In this document: piece by piece, positions 46,701-63,740 of the stretch
Layout of the letters: each line of letters starts with the position of its first letter
How positions within the stretch are numbered: the first letter of the stretch is position 1
Virus record (IMG/VR): IMGVR_UViG_3300030104_004642
Coordinates: 51,003-115,002 of that record
Direction: 5' to 3' (one strand)
DNA: 64,000 nt
From: a virus
Notes under the pieces: generated by a model
Seen by the model: the letters and a program-made list of their open reading frames with translations, nothing else
What the model was told of the DNA's origin: nothing
The model's database searches: none
Program-made: the position numbers and the translations under genes

Positions 46701-49700
46701 GATTTGTAAATTGTGTTATAGGAGAACACATTTTCATCAATTACAAGTTTCTTTTCTTCTGTAACAAATGACTCATTTTGATTACTAAACTTATAATAGA
46801 GAGAAGGAGGAATATCTTTTATTTCAAGTGTTAATTCACCATCAACACCAACTACACCTGAAGTCTTGACATTGAAATCTTGATCTCCATCTGTTGTTAG
46901 ATATTGATTCACAAACAGAGAATCTGTAAAGATCTCCATTTTAAATGCTGGATACTGAATAGAGTTTGAAACAAATGCCAGTGATGGATCAGATAAATCA
47001 AATTTAAGATTTGTTACAGCATCTATACTTGGATTGATCTTAGATAATGTTCCAATACCAGCAGATGTAATGTCAATGAAGTTTGGAGAGATTTTATTCA
47101 ATTCAAACTTTTCATCAACAAGTTTGATTGAAGTTTCTGTATCAACATAGACATAATACATTTTTTCATCTACCAATCCACCAGATGGTGAGCTAGATTG
47201 GTGAATTACTTTATCACCAGTTTTAAATGTATTAGTTGCCACACCAATAGCATTTGATACAATATCAACATCAGATGCTGTGAAACCCTGTGGGTTGAAT
47301 ACTATTCTTCTATTGAAGTTGTTATACTTAACTGAGATGGTTTCCTCATTTTTTGGATTCAAATTAAATTTGATCTTATCATTGACAAACAAACCATGTG
47401 TGCTTGCAGTAGATACAGTTACTTTTGTTCTTCTTGCTTCACCAGTGATTATATCATCAAAATTAGTTTTCAATCCATGGAAAACACCAGTTCCTAAATC
47501 TGTAAAGAACAATAATCCAACTGTTGGATCATTAATCTCAACATATTGAGCAATGTCACCAGTTGATCCTACACCAACCTTATTAGATGATAATCCAATA
47601 AAGTCATCAGAAACAGGAGCAACAAACAATTGGGTAAATGAATCAAGGGTTGTATAAGCAACTCCTGTTTTTCCATTCCACACCTCAATTGTGTCACCAT
47701 TTGGTGTGTATGTTAAAACATCATTTATTTTTAGATTGTGACCTGGAATATAAATGGTCTGCTCAGGTGCAAAAATGTTAGTGATACCAGCACCAGGATT
47801 CTTAAAGTTTAGTGTGATACCAGCACCCACAATGCCATCAGTGGTTGAAGTGCCAATACCAACTGACTCACTTGGTTCAAAGTAAAATTCAGTATTTGAT
47901 CTCAGCAGTTTAGTAGTTTTTAAAGTTCCAACATTAATATTGAACTGTCTGGAATCCTGGAATAGGGGAAGATTGCCAGTATGAGCAAAACCAGGAGTTG
48001 AATCCTGTGTTCTTATAACCCTGATTCTATTGTTGAGAGGATCACTATTGAGAACTTTTAACCTCTCAGATTCAATTGTAATAATATCATTTGGTCTTAT
48101 GAAAGGATATTGGAAAGCACCACCAACAGTTAAGAATGTAACAATACCAGTGTTTGCTACAACATCAATATTTTCAAGAAGGACATATGAACCACTATTG
48201 ATACCAACATTGTAATTGCCATCAAAACCATCAAAGTATTGTGACAGACCACCAATTCTCAACATTGTATTATTAATAATGTTGTGAGGTTGTGTCATAA
48301 TTCCAACAAACCTGTCAGATCTACCAACATTGATAAATTCAATATTTGTGAATAAAGTAGTATCAATGTCAACATTATTAACCTGTCTTCCTTTCAGGGT
48401 ATCAACAACACCCCTTGCTGCCTTACCAAATGTATCACCCTTGAATTCAATCCTATCATTAACTTTATAATTATCACCACCAGTAAAGATACCAACCGTA
48501 TTAACACTTCCTTGTGATACACCTGTTACTTCAATTACCTGTTCTCTCTCTTTATTTGAATTGAAGATATAATCATAACCACCAAAGGGTGTGTTAATCT
48601 TGTAAGGAGTTGTAATTCTTCTCCAATTATTTTCAACCAGGTCATAATCAACATGATTGGATAATTTTTTGAAGTTAAATGTATTAGGTTTATGTTGGAA
48701 ACTATCACCAATCAGGTATGGGAAAATTGGTTTTTTAAGATTCTTAAATGGACCACCACTTTCTGTAATGTCATTGATGGTAGAAAAATAGCAATATGTT
48801 CCATCAGGATAATCAGGTGTTACACAGAATCTACCATTACTTCTGTTAAGATCACCAGTTCCCAAGTATTCATAATCCTCCACAAAGAAACCAAGAGGAT
48901 ATGTGTTAAGTGGGGGTCTATCAGATTTTGCAGATGCCTCATAACCAGAGATCATCCTCCTTACACCACCACCATCTTGTCTATCATATCCATATGGTCC
49001 ATAGATTGGGCAACCATCATATGCCCAACCAATAATTGGAGAGTGATACTTAGATCTTACTTCCTGTCCATTTAATTTTTTTAAATCAGGATGTTGATAT
49101 TGAATTTCACCATTTGATTTTCTACCATATACTACTGTTCTTAGATTTCTTGGAGCATAGAGATGAGCAAGTTGAAGACTATTGCTAATTGATCCCTCAG
49201 CAACAATGCAGTCATCATCAGTCAGTTTGCTTAACTTCTGCTCAAACTTGTTAATTGTCCATTGATTAATATTAGCAGATACACTACCCTCAGCACCTGA
49301 GGGTTCAATGATGATCTGTGAATCAGACCTGTAATTTATTCCACCTGAAACAACAATTACAGATTTGATTACACCATTCTCAGTAATTGGTGTAAGTTTA
49401 CAATATGAACCAAGAGTTGTAGTAAGATGTGGGGGTGAATTATAACCACTACCACCATTGTTTACAATAACCTGTTTGATGGTTCCATTCTCAATAATTG
49501 GTGTCAACTGACCACCAGATCCACTCTTAAGGATTGTGGTTGGTTTTCTATCAAAGTTAAAGATCTCTGATGATCCATAACCAACACCAGATGTACTTAC
49601 ATCAGCAGCACTGATCTGACCCCTGAAAAGTGGTTGAACAGTGGCATTGAATTCCTGTCCAAAATTGGTGTCCAGACCAACCCTTCCTTCAATGGTGACA

Positions 49701-59274: not shown

Positions 59275-59405
59275 AATTTAATCCTGATTTGTGTTTCTGG
59301 TTTGATGAAATCTGATGCCTCTTGTAACTTATCAGAGGTGAATTGTCTTGCATCATTACTATTCCACAACAGGGCAGCAATGATAACTAGGAGGATGATT
59401 TTCAT
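59271..59405 (-). CDS. Small membrane-anchored hypothetical protein (44 aa, not in track)
   Basis: MKIILLVIIAALLWNSNDARQFTSDKLQEAS...; ATGA overlaps on both sides. Confidence 0.65.
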   Translation of the reverse strand: MKIILLVIIAALLWNSNDARQFTSDKLQEASDFIKPETQIRIKL

Positions 59406-59761
59406 GAGAAGACATATCCATTGGTGAATTCTTTGGTGGTGAATACACTCTTACCATTGATTGCACCAGTGAAAAGTCTCACATACCACTGATAGTTCTT
59501 CTGGAATACTCCCTCACCAGTGATGCAAAATTCAGAACAGAGTGCATTTAGTCTGGATTTTGTGGTGTTTGATTGATACCCACCATCAAAGATCATCACA
59601 GAATCATCCTGAATTTCAGCAATCAAGTTATCATGCAGAAAAACAGAAGTAACAACAACCTCTTTACCATCATTATAGAAATTGATGACTTTAGTGTTGC
59701 CTGATTTCCAGTCAGTTTCTGATTTGATGGCATCAATCATCTGGGTTTCAATCTTTCTCAT
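59402..59761 (-). CDS. Conserved phage hypothetical protein
   Basis: 119 aa, MRKIETQM...DGGYQSNTTKSRLNAL...VFQKNYQWY. Confidence 0.8.
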   Translation of the reverse strand: MRKIETQMIDAIKSETDWKSGNTKVINFYNDGKEVVVTSVFLHDNLIAEIQDDSVMIFDGGYQSNTTKSRLNALCSEFCITGEGVFQKNYQWYVRLFTGAINGKSVFTTKEFTNGYVFS

Positions 59762-59819
59762 GGTTGGTTTGTTGCTTATACTATGGGGACAGTTTGGGGG
59801 TAACTAATAATCTACTTAA

Positions 59820-59942
59820 TTACTTTGTGTAATGAAGTGATGCCTTTGCTGGTCTTTTTGCCTTCAATCTGATAACCTTTGGTTGCAATCCTTCTGCCTT
59901 AAGTGAATCAATTGTGTCAAGCAGTTTGGAATAGGAATTCAT
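59820..59942 (-). CDS. Small basic hypothetical protein (40 aa, not in track)
   Basis: MNSYSKLLDTIDSLKAEGLQPKVIRLKAKRPAKASLHYTK; the only ORF between two 35-bp elements. Confidence 0.55.
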   Translation of the reverse strand: MNSYSKLLDTIDSLKAEGLQPKVIRLKAKRPAKASLHYTK

Positions 59943-60064
59943 TTTGAGGAGGGAATGTTTTGTGGTTCAGTGAAGCAAACCCCCAGAAACAATACTAGGA
60001 GAGAAGTGGGGGGGAGAAGACTGAACCCTTATACTATAAGGACACTTTGGGGGTAACTAACAAT

Positions 60065-60277
60065 CTATGGAAGAAGTTTTGTGGATGATATTATTAACAG
60101 GAATGTGAGCATGATAACAACATCCCATGATTTTGTCCTGATGAAGAATGGCACAGAGATAAAATCACCAATAAATTGCATGATCACACCCATTGATAGA
60201 TTAACATGAAGGATGATAAAATATGCTGTGACCACAAGGAATGACCCTATGATTCTTCCAATAGTATCAACCCTCAT
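60065..60277 (-). CDS. Small integral membrane protein
   Basis: 70 aa, almost wholly hydrophobic, VPFFIRTKSWDVVIM. Confidence 0.75.
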   Translation of the reverse strand: MRVDTIGRIIGSFLVVTAYFIILHVNLSMGVIMQFIGDFISVPFFIRTKSWDVVIMLTFLLIISSTKLLP

Positions 60278-60516
60278 CCAAACATCTGCTCAAATAGGTT
60301 ATCACAATTATCTGCCTGTTCCCTGCGATCACACTCATAATCAATGGCATCCCTCATTGATACCAACTCAATCTGTTTTTGTTTGAGTTTATCCATCTCC
60401 ACATTCAGATCATGGAGTCTGTTGTTAATATCAATCCTGTCCAATCCATTGACAGCAGTTACAGTGTGAACCATGCCATTGATTGTTACTTTTTTGTCTG
60501 AGATGATGTTTGTCAT
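60274..60516 (-). CDS. Hypothetical early protein
   Basis: 80 aa, coiled-coil-like, coupled to the next gene. Confidence 0.7.
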   Translation of the reverse strand: MTNIISDKKVTINGMVHTVTAVNGLDRIDINNRLHDLNVEMDKLKQKQIELVSMRDAIDYECDRREQADNCDNLFEQMFG

Positions 60517-60545
60517 AATGTTTTGTTTTTTTGTGATTTTGTGGT

Positions 60546-60710
60546 TTAGAGTGATGCTATGATCCAGCGTCTTGCCTCATAAGCAAGGAATTCATTCCTG
60601 AAAGTTGCTATCTTTTGCATATCTTCCTTCCAATACAATGCCCACTTATGTGAACCCCACACCCCCTTGATTAGGATGGGGTTGTCAATACCAAGGGGAT
60701 AGGGTTTCAT
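60546..60710 (-). CDS. Small hypothetical protein (54 aa, not in track)
   Basis: MKPYPLGIDNPILIKGVWGSHKWALYWKEDMQKIATF...; AC-rich leader after a 35-bp element. Confidence 0.65.
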   Translation of the reverse strand: MKPYPLGIDNPILIKGVWGSHKWALYWKEDMQKIATFRNEFLAYEARRWIIASL

Positions 60711-60761
60711 GGTTTGGTGTGTGTTATACTATGGGGACAGTTTGGGGGTAACTAACAATAA

Positions 60762-61037
60762 TCACAACTCACTTAGCATCTCATTCAGTTCAATGATGTT
60801 GAGAGAATCATCATCCCACTTAACACCATCAGGGGTAGCAGGAGTTAACTCAATCAACATATGAGAGAGTGACTTATATCCATGCTCTGCCCATTCCCTT
60901 GCTATGTTATACAAACCCTCATCATTACCTAACCAGAGTGCTACATTCCAGGTTTCATAGTTTGTCCAACCATTGTAGGATTGGTCTGTAAGTTGTGTCT
61001 GATAGGTTGTTTGAGTCATGCTTTGAGTGGTATCCAT
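60762..61037 (-). CDS. Conserved phage hypothetical protein
   Basis: YNGWTNYETWNVALWLGNDEGLY...TPDGVKW motif. Confidence 0.8.
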   Translation of the reverse strand: MDTTQSMTQTTYQTQLTDQSYNGWTNYETWNVALWLGNDEGLYNIAREWAEHGYKSLSHMLIELTPATPDGVKWDDDSLNIIELNEMLSEL

Positions 61038-61069
61038 ACCATAGGGACAGTTTAGGGGTAACTAACAAT

Positions 61070-61339
61070 CTACTCAAAAGGTTTCACCAATCCAGCAGCA
61101 TAAAACTCACCAATTAACCCCTCATAATCATCAGCAAGGGACCTATATGACATATCATTCTCATACACCTCAAACCCACAATCATCATCAAAGTGTTCAA
61201 TCAGTGCCATCAATTCATCATGATTGTAACCCTCATCATCCTCCTCTGGATTCATAAAATAACCTGCCTTAATATGCTCCACAATGTGAGGATAAAGGAT
61301 GCTCAGAAAATCATCCTTAGTCATTTTAGTTTGTGTCAT
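61070..61339 (-). CDS. Hypothetical acidic early protein
   Basis: 89-aa ORF whose stop overlaps a 35-bp element. Confidence 0.7.
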   Translation of the reverse strand: MTQTKMTKDDFLSILYPHIVEHIKAGYFMNPEEDDEGYNHDELMALIEHFDDDCGFEVYENDMSYRSLADDYEGLIGEFYAAGLVKPFE

Positions 61340-61374
61340 TTTGTTGGAAATGTGTGTGTGATGGTGTGTTAGAC

Positions 61375-61656
61375 TCAGACTAATTCTACCTGATATTGTA
61401 TCCTTGCCTCCTCATACATCTCATCCACTGTCTCCTGAATCACCTGATAAATGTAATCAGAATTACCAACTAAATTATAGGTTTGTTCAATAATATTAGG
61501 ATTGTCCTCACTTAAATCCCAATCAACATCACCATTTTCACCCCTGGGATGAATATCTTCCTTGGTATAAATCCATGCTCCACAGTAAGCATCTCCACCC
61601 TGTTGTTCAACCAGTTTGTTGACCCTTTCTTGCAGTTGTTTGAGTGTGTAATTCAT
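61375..61656 (-). CDS. Hypothetical early protein
   Basis: 93 aa, YTLKQLQERVNKLVEQQG...AWIYTKED. Confidence 0.7.
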   Translation of the reverse strand: MNYTLKQLQERVNKLVEQQGGDAYCGAWIYTKEDIHPRGENGDVDWDLSEDNPNIIEQTYNLVGNSDYIYQVIQETVDEMYEEARIQYQVELV

Positions 61657-61690
61657 TTTAGTGTGTGTGAGTTAGTGTTAGTTAGTGGGG

Positions 61691-61861
61691 TTAATTCCAA
61701 CCTGTGGATTCATCTGGTTCATCAAAATCATCCTCATCAGGTAATACAAAAGAGTATGTAACTTGCTCTTCTGTTAGTTCATCCCTGAACCATATGAGGG
61801 GACATTGATTTAACCAATCATTAAAATCAATGTGGGATGATGTAGTGTTTGGAATACACAT
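61691..61861 (-). CDS. Hypothetical early protein
   Basis: Probable start MCIPNTT; FNDWLNQCP motif. Confidence 0.6.
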   Translation of the reverse strand: MCIPNTTSSHIDFNDWLNQCPLIWFRDELTEEQVTYSFVLPDEDDFDEPDESTGWN

Positions 61862-61865
61862 GATG

Positions 61866-62078
61866 TTAGTTAGTGGGGAAGTTGGCACAGACAGCATCAC
61901 ATAGTGTGCCAAATAAATCATCCTGAGCCTCATCAATATTACTCATCTCACCCATCTCAGTACACTCATTCCTGATACTTTGGAAATACTCATCAACAAT
62001 GCAGTTAATGTCCTCCATTAGTTGTTCCCTTTGGGTCAACATTTCCAGTTTGTTGAGATCCATTGTTGTGGTGTTCAT
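61866..62078 (-). CDS. Hypothetical early protein
   Basis: 70 aa, REQLMEDI...LCDAVCANFP. Confidence 0.7.
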   Translation of the reverse strand: MNTTTMDLNKLEMLTQREQLMEDINCIVDEYFQSIRNECTEMGEMSNIDEAQDDLFGTLCDAVCANFPTN

Positions 62079-62299
62079 CAGTTGGAATAGATTGGTGAGA
62101 CAGTGAACCTTTTGTGTGGAATGTTTCTGAGTTGGATGATAGTCTCATCCACAACCCTTTCCATTTGATTGTGTAGACCATTGAATGTGGTGCAGGGTCT
62201 CTTCTTTACCTGATAGACTTTGGTGGGTTGATCAACATAATCAACCTCAATTTTGTAGAATCCTGAATGTTTTTGTGGCATGGTTGAAGTGTTTCTCAT
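62078..62299 (-). CDS. Hypothetical early protein
   Basis: 73 aa; the first ATG is formed by the 3' end of a 35-bp element. Confidence 0.65.
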   Translation of the reverse strand: MRNTSTMPQKHSGFYKIEVDYVDQPTKVYQVKKRPCTTFNGLHNQMERVVDETIIQLRNIPHKRFTVSPIYSN

Positions 62300-62334
62300 A
62301 CTATGGGTACAGTTTAGGGGTAACTAACAATCTA

Positions 62335-62505
62335 TCAATAGATGTTAGTCCATCTTTTGTGTTGTTTTGCAGTGATTTTTCCGTCTTTAAGTAGACCATC
62401 ACACACTAAAAGGAAGGTTTGAAACTTAAACTCCCTGTCTGAATCATAGGGTGTTGATTTACACTCCCTAATGATTTTTTTGAGTTGATTGAGTGTAATA
62501 GTCAT
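62335..62505 (-). CDS. Small hypothetical protein (56 aa, not in track)
   Basis: MTITLNQLKKIIREC...CDGLLKDGKITAKQHKRWTNIY. Confidence 0.65.
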   Translation of the reverse strand: MTITLNQLKKIIRECKSTPYDSDREFKFQTFLLVCDGLLKDGKITAKQHKRWTNIY

Positions 62506-62507
62506 GA

Positions 62508-62687
62508 TCACATTCCATTCATAAAGTCATGAATTGCAGCATGATATTCTTCCTCTGTATTGTATGTTCTACCATACATTGTCAGAGGAAACTCTTTCTT
62601 TTGAAACATTGTTGATGCTACCTGAACATCAGTTTTGTCATAACCCATCTCAACTAGGGTTTGAATGTAAGGATTGTTGTTTGTCAT
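62508..62687 (-). CDS. Small hypothetical protein (59 aa, not in track)
   Basis: MTNNNPYIQTLVEMGYD...YGRTYNTEEEYHAAI; ATG formed by the 3' end of a 35-bp element. Confidence 0.65.
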   Translation of the reverse strand: MTNNNPYIQTLVEMGYDKTDVQVASTMFQKKEFPLTMYGRTYNTEEEYHAAIHDFMNGM

Positions 62688-62738
62688 ACCATAGGGACAC
62701 TTTACAGGTAACTAACAATCTATTTCAAAAGTTTGCCA

Positions 62739-63452
62739 CTAACATACACCACCCCAGATTTCTTGCAGTGCATAAACATCAGCAGGCATCAGGGGGTTTT
62801 TGATACCCCAGTCCAAAAAGTTGTAGGACATTGCAGTATCCCTATTGGTATAATCTGGATTTGCACCATCACCAAAGGGATGAGATAATCCTAATGTGTG
62901 AAGAATCTCATGGGTGATTAACCTCCTATTGTAATATGAAACCCTCTCCTTTCCCCTCCTGTTTGTGTTAGTCTCATTCCAACTTGTCAACCAGGTTGCA
63001 TATATTTTATCACCTTCATTATATGCTAAACCATTTGCCTGAGAAAACTGTTCACCAAACTTGTCATAGTTATCAACATCATCCACAATAACATCAGCAA
63101 GGTTTATATCATGCTGCATCTGCATCTTTGTATTAGTTACCCTGTCAATCTTTCTTATCATCCTCCTGGTATATCTTCTCTGCTTTTTTGGAATACTTAA
63201 ATCCACATAAAAATCAACCTTGTTATCATCCAGGAACCCCCAGTTTTCCTTCATCCATGGACCCCAAGTTTCAGAGATAAGTCCATTTACCAGTGGATCT
63301 GTCACAGTTGTGTTACAATCTTTATCCCAAGGTTTGGGAGGTTCTACCACTTCAGGTTCAAGAACATGTTCAGTTATTGTACCAAGATTCAAGGGATTTG
63401 TGTCTGTTTCAGTTGATTGGTGGAATCCACCATTAAGACAGGCAACACACAT
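62739..63452 (-). CDS. Metzincin (M10 matrixin/serralysin-like) zinc metalloprotease
   Basis: HEILHTLGLSHP (HExxHxxGxxH), Met-turn TAMSY and C-terminal PADVYALQEIWG; start placed at MCVACL. Confidence 0.85.
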   Translation of the reverse strand: MCVACLNGGFHQSTETDTNPLNLGTITEHVLEPEVVEPPKPWDKDCNTTVTDPLVNGLISETWGPWMKENWGFLDDNKVDFYVDLSIPKKQRRYTRRMIRKIDRVTNTKMQMQHDINLADVIVDDVDNYDKFGEQFSQANGLAYNEGDKIYATWLTSWNETNTNRRGKERVSYYNRRLITHEILHTLGLSHPFGDGANPDYTNRDTAMSYNFLDWGIKNPLMPADVYALQEIWGGVC

Positions 63453-63500
63453 AATTGATTGATTGTGATAATAAAAGGACAGTTTAGAGGTAACTAACAA

Positions 63501-63740
63501 TCATACCAAACTTAATTGCTCTCTGAGAACAGTATCAACACGATCTAACTCCTTCCAAATATATTCTTCCTCTGCTAAACAGGACAGAAAATCTACCTCA
63601 ATCCAGGTATCTTCATCATCATCATAACTATCATCCGTGAACATTGGAGTCATAAAGAGATCATCACCTATAATAGTGAAGGCAGCACCTAACACCTCAG
63701 ATTCAAGAATTGGATTGTTTGAGACTTTTGAAATGATCAT
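63501..63740 (-). CDS. Hypothetical acidic early protein
   Basis: 79-aa ORF whose stop overlaps a 35-bp element. Confidence 0.7.
   Translation of the reverse strand: MIISKVSNNPILESEVLGAAFTIIGDDLFMTPMFTDDSYDDDEDTWIEVDFLSCLAEEEYIWKELDRVDTVLREQLSLV

Follow-up and report, generated by a model that had tools for sequence, protein, structure and literature searches.

A probable transcription-start signal and gene seam repeated through a small-gene array of a T4-like cyanophage

Seven copies of a 35-bp element divide an array of small genes in the DNA analysed here, a window of 64,000 nucleotides taken from the 115,002-bp viral record IMGVR_UViG_3300030104_004642. These repeats represent, in one lineage, a two-part signal for gene starts that is widespread and in many cases includes the start codon of the gene behind it. 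In the block of small, early-type genes of this T4-like cyanophage (Kyanoviridae), each copy is probably a signal that acts at the level of DNA to start transcription. It would also double as a seam between genes, a second role explained by the crowding of about ten copies in the same orientation into 5–15 kb. The RNA would most likely begin at the purine right behind a 16-base core; units in which an ATG comes next (copies 4, 5, and 6) would yield leaderless messages, and the other units messages with a leader, either of about 15–20 bases or longer and untranslated. Transcription machinery common to all of these phage-host pairs would presumably read the core, and a putative factor that differs between lineages the adjoining 14-base upstream box. 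No site-specific recombinase would be needed for the phage, through recombination of its own, to acquire, lose, or relocate promoter-plus-gene modules at or beside the copies.

Organization of the array

All seven copies lie on the minus strand, as do the genes described below, and are gap-free, with zero to three mismatches to the consensus of the initial annotation, whose account of their number and shared orientation is upheld; none arose in 100 shuffles of the sequence. Extending the search to the whole 115,002-bp record, as that annotation had proposed, revealed no eighth copy by either a weight-matrix scan or a core-only scan. The array lies 0.5–4.7 kb from the contig end and, judged by its synteny with a relative that is 89% identical (L010), probably continues past it.

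Read along the minus strand, a 79-aa ORF (63501–63740, PHROG 4138) that is missing at the same place in L010 lies directly 5′ of copy 7 (63468–63502). This is the most degenerate copy, with three mismatches and TTTATT as its TATAGT part; its counterpart in L010 is more eroded still, having lost the hexamer and one base of the box. Copy 7 heads a 237-aa ORF (62739–63452) with an HExxHxxGxxH zinc-protease motif. Copy 6 (62686–62720, core 62688–62703) is followed by a 59-aa ORF (62508–62687, PHROG 649), a gene that the element precedes in four of four arrays; the proposed RNA start, 62687, is the A of its ATG, and the same fusion recurs in CDS 071 of phage SynMITS9220M01. Behind it is a 56-aa ORF (62335–62505, PHROG 336), usually the final gene ahead of the next element, here copy 5 (62298–62332, core 62300–62315, ATG at 62299). 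The unit at 61375–62299 holds three small ORFs, the first of 73 aa (PHROG 5495) and the third of 93 aa (PHROG 1255), with a second that can be read either as 70 aa from an ATG (61866–62078) or, in another frame, as 81 aa from a TTG (61691–61936; 80 aa from the first ATG). An 89-aa ORF specific to the window's genome (61070–61339) is inserted, relative to L010, directly 5′ of copy 4 (61036–61070, core 61038–61053, ATG at 61037), behind which lies a 91-aa ORF (60762–61037, DUF7249/PHROG 871) preceded by the element in three of four arrays. In copy 3 (60726–60760) the slot behind the core holds ATA, not ATG, and the ATG of the gene comes 15 bases after the element; the unit at 60065–60710 comprises ORFs of 54 aa, 80 aa (PHROG 3146), and 70 aa, and the block of element plus 54-aa gene occurs at a different site in L018. 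An ORF-free leader of 88 bases (59943–60030), of a type also found after copies in L012 and L014, follows copy 2 (60031–60065). The remaining stretch (59402–59942) contains a 40-aa ORF, then copy 1 (59778–59812), the last of the array, and then the 119-aa Kyano_Gp96 ORF (PF23790) that copy 1 heads, with its ATG 16 bases after the element.

Anatomy and distribution of the element

The 35 bases are made up of the 14-base upstream box, which in the window contains GTTAGTTACC, the 16-base core (AAASTGTCCYYATRGT), and a purine-T start. The core is common to at least 120 viral contigs (the count being a lower bound) and to the cultured Synechococcus phages SynMITS9220M01 and S-SM2, and so to a large group of cyanophages, whereas the box is private to the lineage. 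Among 554 copies from 91 contigs, box identity is 0.84 within contigs but 0.46 between them, with 49 box types distinguished, whereas core identity is nearly the same in both comparisons (0.88 and 0.85); identity of the flanks is about 0.3 either way. The suggestion in the initial annotation that the repeats form a phage-specific class of early promoter stands in so far as the element behaves as a phage-specific gene-start signal, but its core is not peculiar to this phage. The further idea of a dedicated reader becomes more plausible, since the box is uniform within genomes and replaced between them while the flanks are not homogenised.

Arrays of the same element family occur in 12 viral contigs, and the copies invariably point the same way as the genes. 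Cultured SynMITS9220M01 carries 12 of them (36.3–50.0 kb) and S-SM2 about 10 (42.7–57.1 kb); both sets occupy the block of small ORFs that lies upstream of the baseplate genes gp25, gp6, and gp7. A search of 596 Gb of prokaryote genomes with the core gave 97 matches, against about 555 expected for an equally degenerate random 16-mer, and only a few of the matched stretches proved in a follow-up scan to hold a second core copy; as the matches are taxonomically scattered, mostly single, and below the chance expectation, the core is not a host motif. The element has no stable or shared fold (z-scores −0.8 to +1.5) and no terminator-like hairpin adjoins any of the seven copies, in agreement with the absence of hairpins remarked on at the outset. 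No Rfam family matches the element, and no Shine-Dalgarno sequence was found ahead of the genes that it heads.

Stop and start codons at the element edges

Upstream stop codons crowd the 5′ edge of the element. Three ORFs (with ends at 60065, 61070, and 63501) overlap it by 1–2 bases, two (with ends at 60762 and 62335) fall 1–2 bases short of it, and the remaining two stop 7 and 18 bases short. The overlaps and abutments described for five copies are therefore as first reported, but what had been called a fusion of element and stop codon amounts to ordinary gene packing combined with a stop-rich 5′ edge.

At 61037, 62299, and 62687 the last two bases of the element and the next G form an ATG, exactly as the initial annotation had it. 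The ATG at 62687 is the sole possible start of the 59-aa ORF, whose PHROG 649 alignment begins at residue 1 and which varies among relatives, over its N-terminal codons, by third-position changes that preserve the residue (as judged by eye). The ORFs at 61037 and 62299 have a second in-frame ATG 18 bases downstream, which matches the spacing of about 15–16 bases in copies that lack the adjoining ATG, and the DUF7249/PHROG 871 alignment of the ORF at 61037 begins near this second ATG. Among 534 copies, 525 have a purine immediately behind the core, 486 have a T in the position after that, and 229 (43%) have an ATG directly adjoining the core. In 217 of those 229 copies (95%) the frame set by that slot runs for 30 codons or more without a stop, compared with 122 of the 305 others (40%; odds ratio 27, p = 5e-44). 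The 217 open frames fall into 42 protein clusters, and 76 of them have no other start nearby. A conserved family of about 300 aa starts at the element ATG in SynMITS9220M01 and S-SM2 and 15 bases later in L010.

Because the slot frame is open so much more often when it holds an ATG, and across 42 families, the ATG must lie within the mRNA. Transcription most likely begins at this ATG or shortly ahead of it, which would give leaderless or short-leader messages, although the in-frame rule could also be obtained from read-through transcripts alone.

Transcription initiation at the element

Sigma-70-like and T4-late promoters are present as separate signals in the window's genome, and the element would accordingly represent a third class of promoter, presumably an early one; there are 11 TATAAATA sites, each of them on the coding strand, and two sigma-70 matches of 11/12 (58602–58574 and 58078–58050). 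A sigma-70 scan of the seven copies reached 9/12 only in copies 5 and 6, through flank bases and TAAAST, and no −35 hexamer is conserved across copies, in line with the original view that this is not a consensus sigma-70 promoter. The TAGTAT/TATGGT segment then offered as a −10 box is probably not one, because the ATG right behind the hexamer is used as a start codon. Counting against the start signal proposed here, initiation immediately behind TATAGT would be at odds with sigma-70 geometry, no alternative polymerase gene is detectable in the complete relatives, and the only sigma-like ORF is a late factor of the gp55 type.

It is conceivable that each copy is an ordinary promoter of the host polymerase, with TATAGT (or TAGTAT) as its −10 box, RNA starting about seven bases later near a conserved CAC, and the private box, at about −36 to −23, serving as the site of a phage activator in place of a −35 box, as the MotA box does. 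The hexamer-adjacent ATG would then be present only in transcripts reading through from upstream units, and read-through is likely since no terminators separate the units. TATAGT does keep, in most copies, the A and T that matter most in a −10 box, the private box is located where a −35 or MotA box would be, the eight bases after the hexamer are semi-conserved in the manner of a discriminator and start region, and no alternative polymerase gene was found in the complete relatives. We nonetheless consider this arrangement unlikely: in the 76 copies in which the hexamer-adjacent ATG is the only nearby start, the element's own transcripts would lack a start codon, and these copies include the family of about 300 aa, which follows the element in every array that contains it. 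The two copies that reach 9/12 do so with a different hexamer from the one required. MotA gave no match, in a search run without a positive control, and T4-like cyanophages are stated to lack motA and asiA (PMC5780444).

A signal at the level of RNA, within a long polycistronic early transcript, would account for the stop codon at the 5′ edge of the element and the start codon at its 3′ edge, for the use of that ATG in frame, and for the missing Shine-Dalgarno sequences; the element would then be a processing site before the ATG slot or a site at which ribosomes land independently of a Shine-Dalgarno sequence. Such a role is improbable, given the lack of a shared fold and of an Rfam match and a distance from element to working start that varies between 0 and over 80 bases, unlike that of a ribosome-positioning signal. 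We know of no precedent among endoribonucleases for an unstructured 30-base recognition site with a lineage-private half.

The length of the gap-free block, its lineage-specific part, and its ending at the inferred start would also suit a contiguous promoter of about 30 bp, with TATA and a purine start, for a phage-encoded single-subunit or other non-canonical RNA polymerase, and the TCCCTATAG segment resembles the −8 to +1 segment of T7. In T7-group promoters, the private part is at −8 to −12 and not beyond −16. No T7-type polymerase (PF00940) was matched in complete SynMITS9220M01 and Syn9 (Syn5 positive control, 4e-77), nor in the window's genome, where the search had no working control; no multisubunit, beta-like RNA polymerase was matched in the complete relatives (14 of 14 control genomes positive). 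A polymerase of this kind is thus a very remote prospect.

Returning to the two-part start signal, initiation might be of a non-sigma-70 mode, in which RNA begins at the purine after TATAGT, some 40% of early units are leaderless, and the box is recognised either by a phage protein that is particular to the lineage and delivered with the DNA or by a polymerase activity of a kind so far overlooked. This proposal is tentative and, on balance, doubtful; if true, the dozens of box types among ocean cyanophages would reflect the diversification of a specificity system.

Gene exchange at the element

The element travels with the gene on its 3′ side. Five gene families are preceded by it in three of three to six of six arrays, and the majority fraction is 0.92 for being preceded by an element, as opposed to 0.79 for being followed by one. 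Homology breaks off at 116 of the 172 element junctions, compared with 64 of the 162 other array junctions (odds ratio 3.2, about 1.7-fold), the comparisons not being independent of one another; gain and loss breakpoints are thus commoner at the element than at other gene junctions, the outcome that the initial annotation had looked for among relatives. By a cruder test of gene order, synteny breaks were no commoner at element junctions than at others (odds ratio 1.0), and for this reason the link of the element to gene differences between close relatives is weak. Two genome-specific ORFs lie directly 5′ of copies, and a 362-bp gene indel that separates L019 from L009 (95% identical) is flanked by a 7-base repeat equal to the 3′ end of the element; many breakpoints lie away from elements.

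The absence of an integrase noted from the window extends to a recombinase scan, which found no tyrosine recombinase in the window's genome, SynMITS9220M01, or S-SM2 (14 of 14 control genomes positive). The array had nonetheless been likened to an integron, and same-orientation repeats bounding small unrelated genes, with breakpoints enriched at them, are what a cassette system built on a recombination site would show, but the comparison fails and the idea is hardly credible, as there is neither a tyrosine recombinase nor, by fold analysis, an attC-like inverted repeat in the element, which sits 5′ of the gene with which it travels and carries its start codon, and many breakpoints are elsewhere.

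Comparison with known systems

Doron and colleagues, in work from 2016 on Syn9 and P-TIM40, reportedly described a "novel early regulatory element" of T4-like cyanophages that is repeated, unlike a sigma-70 promoter, and placed ahead of small early genes, and that is said to be abundant and conserved in genomes and metagenomes. We take the window's element to be probably the same. Their scheme of novel early, host-like middle, and T4-like late classes reportedly has three members, which match the three motif classes in the window's genome, and the window's array lies in a block syntenic to gp55–gp93 of Syn9. Syn9 itself, however, has no exact member of the element family; it has a looser five-copy repeat (...TATTCTATAAG), with the ATG 17–19 bases later, that shares only its layout and a CTATA segment with the window's element.

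The middle promoters of T4, with a MotA box at −30 and a −10 box, are likewise in two parts, with a phage-specific upstream box that replaces the −35 box. The window's element differs in having a conserved spacer and start region as well, in a start codon position that argues against the middle-promoter geometry, and in the lack of a MotA match in the uncontrolled search. T7-group promoters resemble it as a contiguous conserved block with TATA, a purine at the inferred start, and a specificity part that each lineage has as its own, but no such polymerase gene is present in SynMITS9220M01 or Syn9 and the private part is placed differently. Integron cassette arrays also separate small unrelated genes by same-orientation repeats; attC, however, sits at the 3′ end of its cassette, while the repeat described here, with no integrase and no attC structure, is 5′ of its gene and resembles an expression signal.

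The promoter-early stem-loops (PeSLs) of the T4-type phages RB49/phi1, PST/T4, and nt-1/KVP40 (Arbiol 2010, PMC2839356; Comeau 2014, PMC4122927) share with the window's array many co-oriented copies of a promoter-type motif (the promoter role being, in the window, a putative one) between small ORFan genes of a plastic region. Both have a lineage-specific sequence and an association with gene differences between close relatives. The window's element differs from a PeSL in having no stem-loop and only 0–18 bases between stop codon and element, in lacking a TTGACA-N17-TATAAT-like pair, and in possessing a private half and, often, a start codon. The element works like a PeSL minus the stem-loop and is not an integron.

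Occurrence and genomic setting of the repeat

A large part of the ocean's main photosynthetic bacteria falls victim to T4-like cyanophages. The way in which these phages switch on their first genes is poorly understood, and the MotA/AsiA system of T4 is absent there (motA and asiA are both missing from cyanophages; PMC5780444). The array in the window is a real and well-defined feature: one lineage's version of a gene-start signal that is widespread among cyanophages and probably already in the literature. It is not a new kind of mobile-cassette system. The present analysis adds numbers for the two-part structure, statistics on the start codon, grounds for excluding several readers and a link to gene shuffling that is measured but moderate.

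The 35-base consensus of the initial annotation matches the window seven times with 0–3 mismatches (59778–63502) and shuffled sequence not at all. All seven copies lie on the minus strand, as does every gene of the array region, confirming the single orientation first described; equally borne out are the stop codons that overlap or abut the 5′ end of the element in five copies (60065, 60762, 61070, 62335 and 63501) and the fusion of the element to an ATG in three (61037, 62299 and 62687). The ORFs of the cassettes match PHROGs of unknown function, DUF7249 and Kyano_Gp96, the last being part of the gene content by which the source virus is classed as a T4-like cyanophage. A 237-aa ORF among them (62739–63452, minus strand) carries a zinc-protease motif, HEILHTLGLSH (HExxHxxGxxH), has no Pfam or PHROG match and is possibly a metzincin-like early protein.

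The window forms the final 64 kb of a 115,002-bp IMG/VR virus record with an estimated completeness of 60%. The initial annotation had proposed a scan for more copies in the remaining genome; none turned up when the whole record was scanned with a weight matrix and with the core alone. Since only 0.5 kb separates the array from the contig end, and since the related contig L010 (89% identical) carries further units upstream, the window's array is probably truncated by the contig end. Copies can also decay in place, as exemplified by copy 7 (63468–63502) and its L010 counterpart. The element was also found by BLAST in the cultured Synechococcus phages SynMITS9220M01 (M01; 12 copies, 36.3–50.0 kb) and S-SM2 (about 10 copies, 42.7–57.1 kb). 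In complete genomes all genuine copies are co-oriented inside one block of small, mostly unnamed genes, which in these two phages lies directly upstream of the gp25/gp6/gp7 baseplate genes and is syntenic to gp55–gp93 of cyanophage Syn9.

A lineage-private box joined to a shared core

A pattern scan of viral contigs located the same element in the arrays of 12, always co-oriented with the downstream ORFs. At least 120 viral contigs contain its 3′ half by itself, AAASTGTCYCTATAGT, with upstream sequence that differs contig by contig. Mean pairwise identity was calculated for 91 contigs with at least three copies each (554 copies). The 14 bases 5′ of the core (the box) are 0.84 identical within a contig and 0.46 between contigs, the 16-base core 0.88 and 0.85, the eight bases 3′ of the core 0.58 and 0.54, and the farther flanks about 0.3 in both comparisons. 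This profile, together with the 49 box consensus types in the same set, describes an element in which a lineage-private box is followed by a core that is universal and then by a start region that is semi-conserved. The box contains GTTAGTTACC in the window's copies, TTACTCACC in M01 and GGGGGGTCG in S-SM2. The identity boundaries are sharp, which argues that selection acts on the box in each genome and that gene conversion alone does not account for its uniformity.

Two variations of this plan were observed. At many loci with GGGGGGAC-type boxes (e.g., L121, L072, L044 and the S-SM2 locus L162; about 100 copies), AGGGAC in the box is an exact inverted repeat of GTCCCT in the core, 9 bases apart, an arrangement that would fit a hairpin or a binding protein with two-fold symmetry, in lineages of this type only. 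The core of the S-SM2 copies is mostly AAAGCGTCCC, whereas the CpG-depleted genome of the window has AAASTGTCC there; core position 5 thus accepts C or T and, in the window's genome, follows the genome-wide loss of CG.

The built-in start codon and the probable site of RNA initiation

In a set of 534 non-redundant copies, 525 have a purine directly after the core, 486 have T as the second base, and in 229 the core is followed immediately by an ATG. This ATG opens a frame of 30 codons or more in 217 of the 229 (95%); the same frame is that long in 122 of the 305 copies (40%) without an ATG (odds ratio 27, p = 5e-44). The 217 open frames fall into 42 protein clusters, and for 76 of them the first 20 codons hold no other ATG in frame; where a second ATG follows, it is found at 15, 18 or 21 bases. 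In copies without the built-in ATG the gene mostly starts 16–19 bases downstream, in any frame. In M01, S-SM2 and many contigs the built-in ATG is the start of a conserved family of ~300 aa, whose L010 member begins 15 bases later, and the alignment of the window's 59-aa gene to its PHROG begins at residue 1. By the frame statistics, this family and the 59-aa alignment, the built-in ATG is judged to be part of the message and to be translated.

Should the element act as promoter for the gene that it heads, RNA would have to start at or before the built-in ATG. Such a start would point to leaderless or near-leaderless messages, as is also implied by a start codon built into more than 40% of about 530 copies, and it would make TATAGT, like the TAGTAT/TATGGT hexamer of the initial annotation, an unlikely -10 box. 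The frame rule could alternatively be produced by read-through transcripts instead of an RNA start at the element. Hairpins begin at the first base after the core in several copies with long leaders; once upstream context was included, or a strict hairpin finder used, 5′ hairpins at the proposed start site did not differ from controls. Copy 2 (60031–60065) is followed by an 88-base leader without an ORF (59943–60030, minus strand), for which only a weak hairpin is predicted (z = -1.07), and leaders of the same type follow copies in contigs L012 and L014.

Candidate readers and other signal classes

A two-part signal with a lineage-private half implies a dedicated reader. The sole sigma-like ORF found is a gp55-type late factor, and the record contains 11 T4-type late sites, TATAAATA (e.g., 55284, 40769, 22845, 8163 and 6626, minus strand). 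They are confined to the coding strand, and ten of them lie 7–34 bases upstream of the next ATG. These sites are the T4-type late promoter class and lack the core, which rules out a gp55 late promoter as the identity of the element. Two 11/12 matches to the sigma-70 consensus (58602–58574 and 58078–58050, minus strand) flank a 60-aa repressor gene and TGTGTWACACA palindromes, and are probably a host-like, perhaps middle, promoter class of the phage. Because the genome holds both of these classes, the element is a third signal class beside them. It is not the operator of the neighbouring repressor, whose palindrome differs from the private box.

A host motif is likewise excluded, the 16-mer core being rarer than chance in 596 Gb of prokaryote genomes (97 hits, mostly single and taxonomically scattered, with roughly 555 expected); a second core copy is present in only a handful of the 97 stretches. 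One metagenome-assembled genome, CALCDB01 (labelled Verrucomicrobia; L166, L178, L187, L199, L225 and others), has a different repeat family that includes the same 16-mer, often at contig ends and with unrelated flanks, and that may be a mobile element breaking the assembly. The single-cell genome of Prochlorococcus sp. AG-402-I20 (L205) has one true phage-type copy, GGGGGGACG box plus core, which suggests cyanophage DNA in that assembly. A T7-like promoter is ruled out by the lack of a polymerase gene, PF00940 having no match in M01 or Syn9 (positive control Syn5, 4e-77). No RNA polymerase beta-like gene was found, with matches in 14 of 14 control genomes, nor was MotA, in a search that had no positive control. 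Structured RNA (no Rfam match, no fold common to the copies), an antisense promoter (no consistent hexamer pair on the plus strand) and, in a comparison by eye, NtcA, Pho-box, LexA and HLR1 sites and the T4 RegA RNA target do not fit.

Gene shuffling and comparison with known systems

Gene-family maps of 14 arrays display strong mosaicism. The element is tied to the downstream gene, since five families have it before them in each array in which they occur; the majority fraction is 0.92 for 'preceded by' the element versus 0.79 for 'followed by'. The initial annotation had proposed that the element doubles as a homology anchor. Breakpoints are indeed commoner there, homology between relatives ending at 67% of element junctions versus 40% of other gene junctions in arrays (odds ratio 3.2, from comparisons that are not independent), but a gene-order test revealed no excess of breaks at element junctions, and the element marks sites of gene-module exchange only moderately. 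Two ORFs specific to the window's genome (63501–63740 and 61070–61339) lie directly 5′ of copies, and a block of the element plus a 54-aa gene is located elsewhere in contig L018. Contigs L019 and L009 (95% identical) differ by a 362-bp gene indel with a 7-base repeat, equal to the 3′ end of the element, on its flanks, and a second indel starts 27 bases after another copy.

The integron-like array that had been suggested was not upheld: the search for a recombinase found no integrase in the window's genome, M01 or S-SM2, with matches in 14 of 14 control genomes, and the element has no inverted repeat. The array therefore works not like an integron but in the manner of the PeSL cassettes of other T4-type phages (Arbiol 2010, PMC2839356; Comeau 2014, PMC4122927), by recombination of the general or microhomology kind. 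Cyanophages are not treated in the PeSL paper, and the element departs from the PeSL definition in both the stem-loop and the sigma-70 consensus.

Searches of published full text for pieces of the element returned nothing relevant, and no motif appeared in the available text of papers citing Doron 2016. Syn9 itself (NC_008296) has only a looser look-alike repeat, whose five copies on the plus strand (46344, 47259, 48613, 51055 and 53051) end in TATTCTATAAGAGTCAAAG, or TACTATAAGAGTCAAAG at 47259. Four small genes (gp63, gp68, gp73 and gp78) have their start codons 17–19 bases after the Syn9 repeat, and boxes of the GTGKCAC type stand farther upstream; it resembles the element in layout but differs from it in sequence. 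For Syn9, Doron et al. in 2016 reportedly assigned the early genes to a novel element, the middle genes to host-like promoters and the late genes to T4-like ones, a scheme that the three signal classes of the window's genome match.
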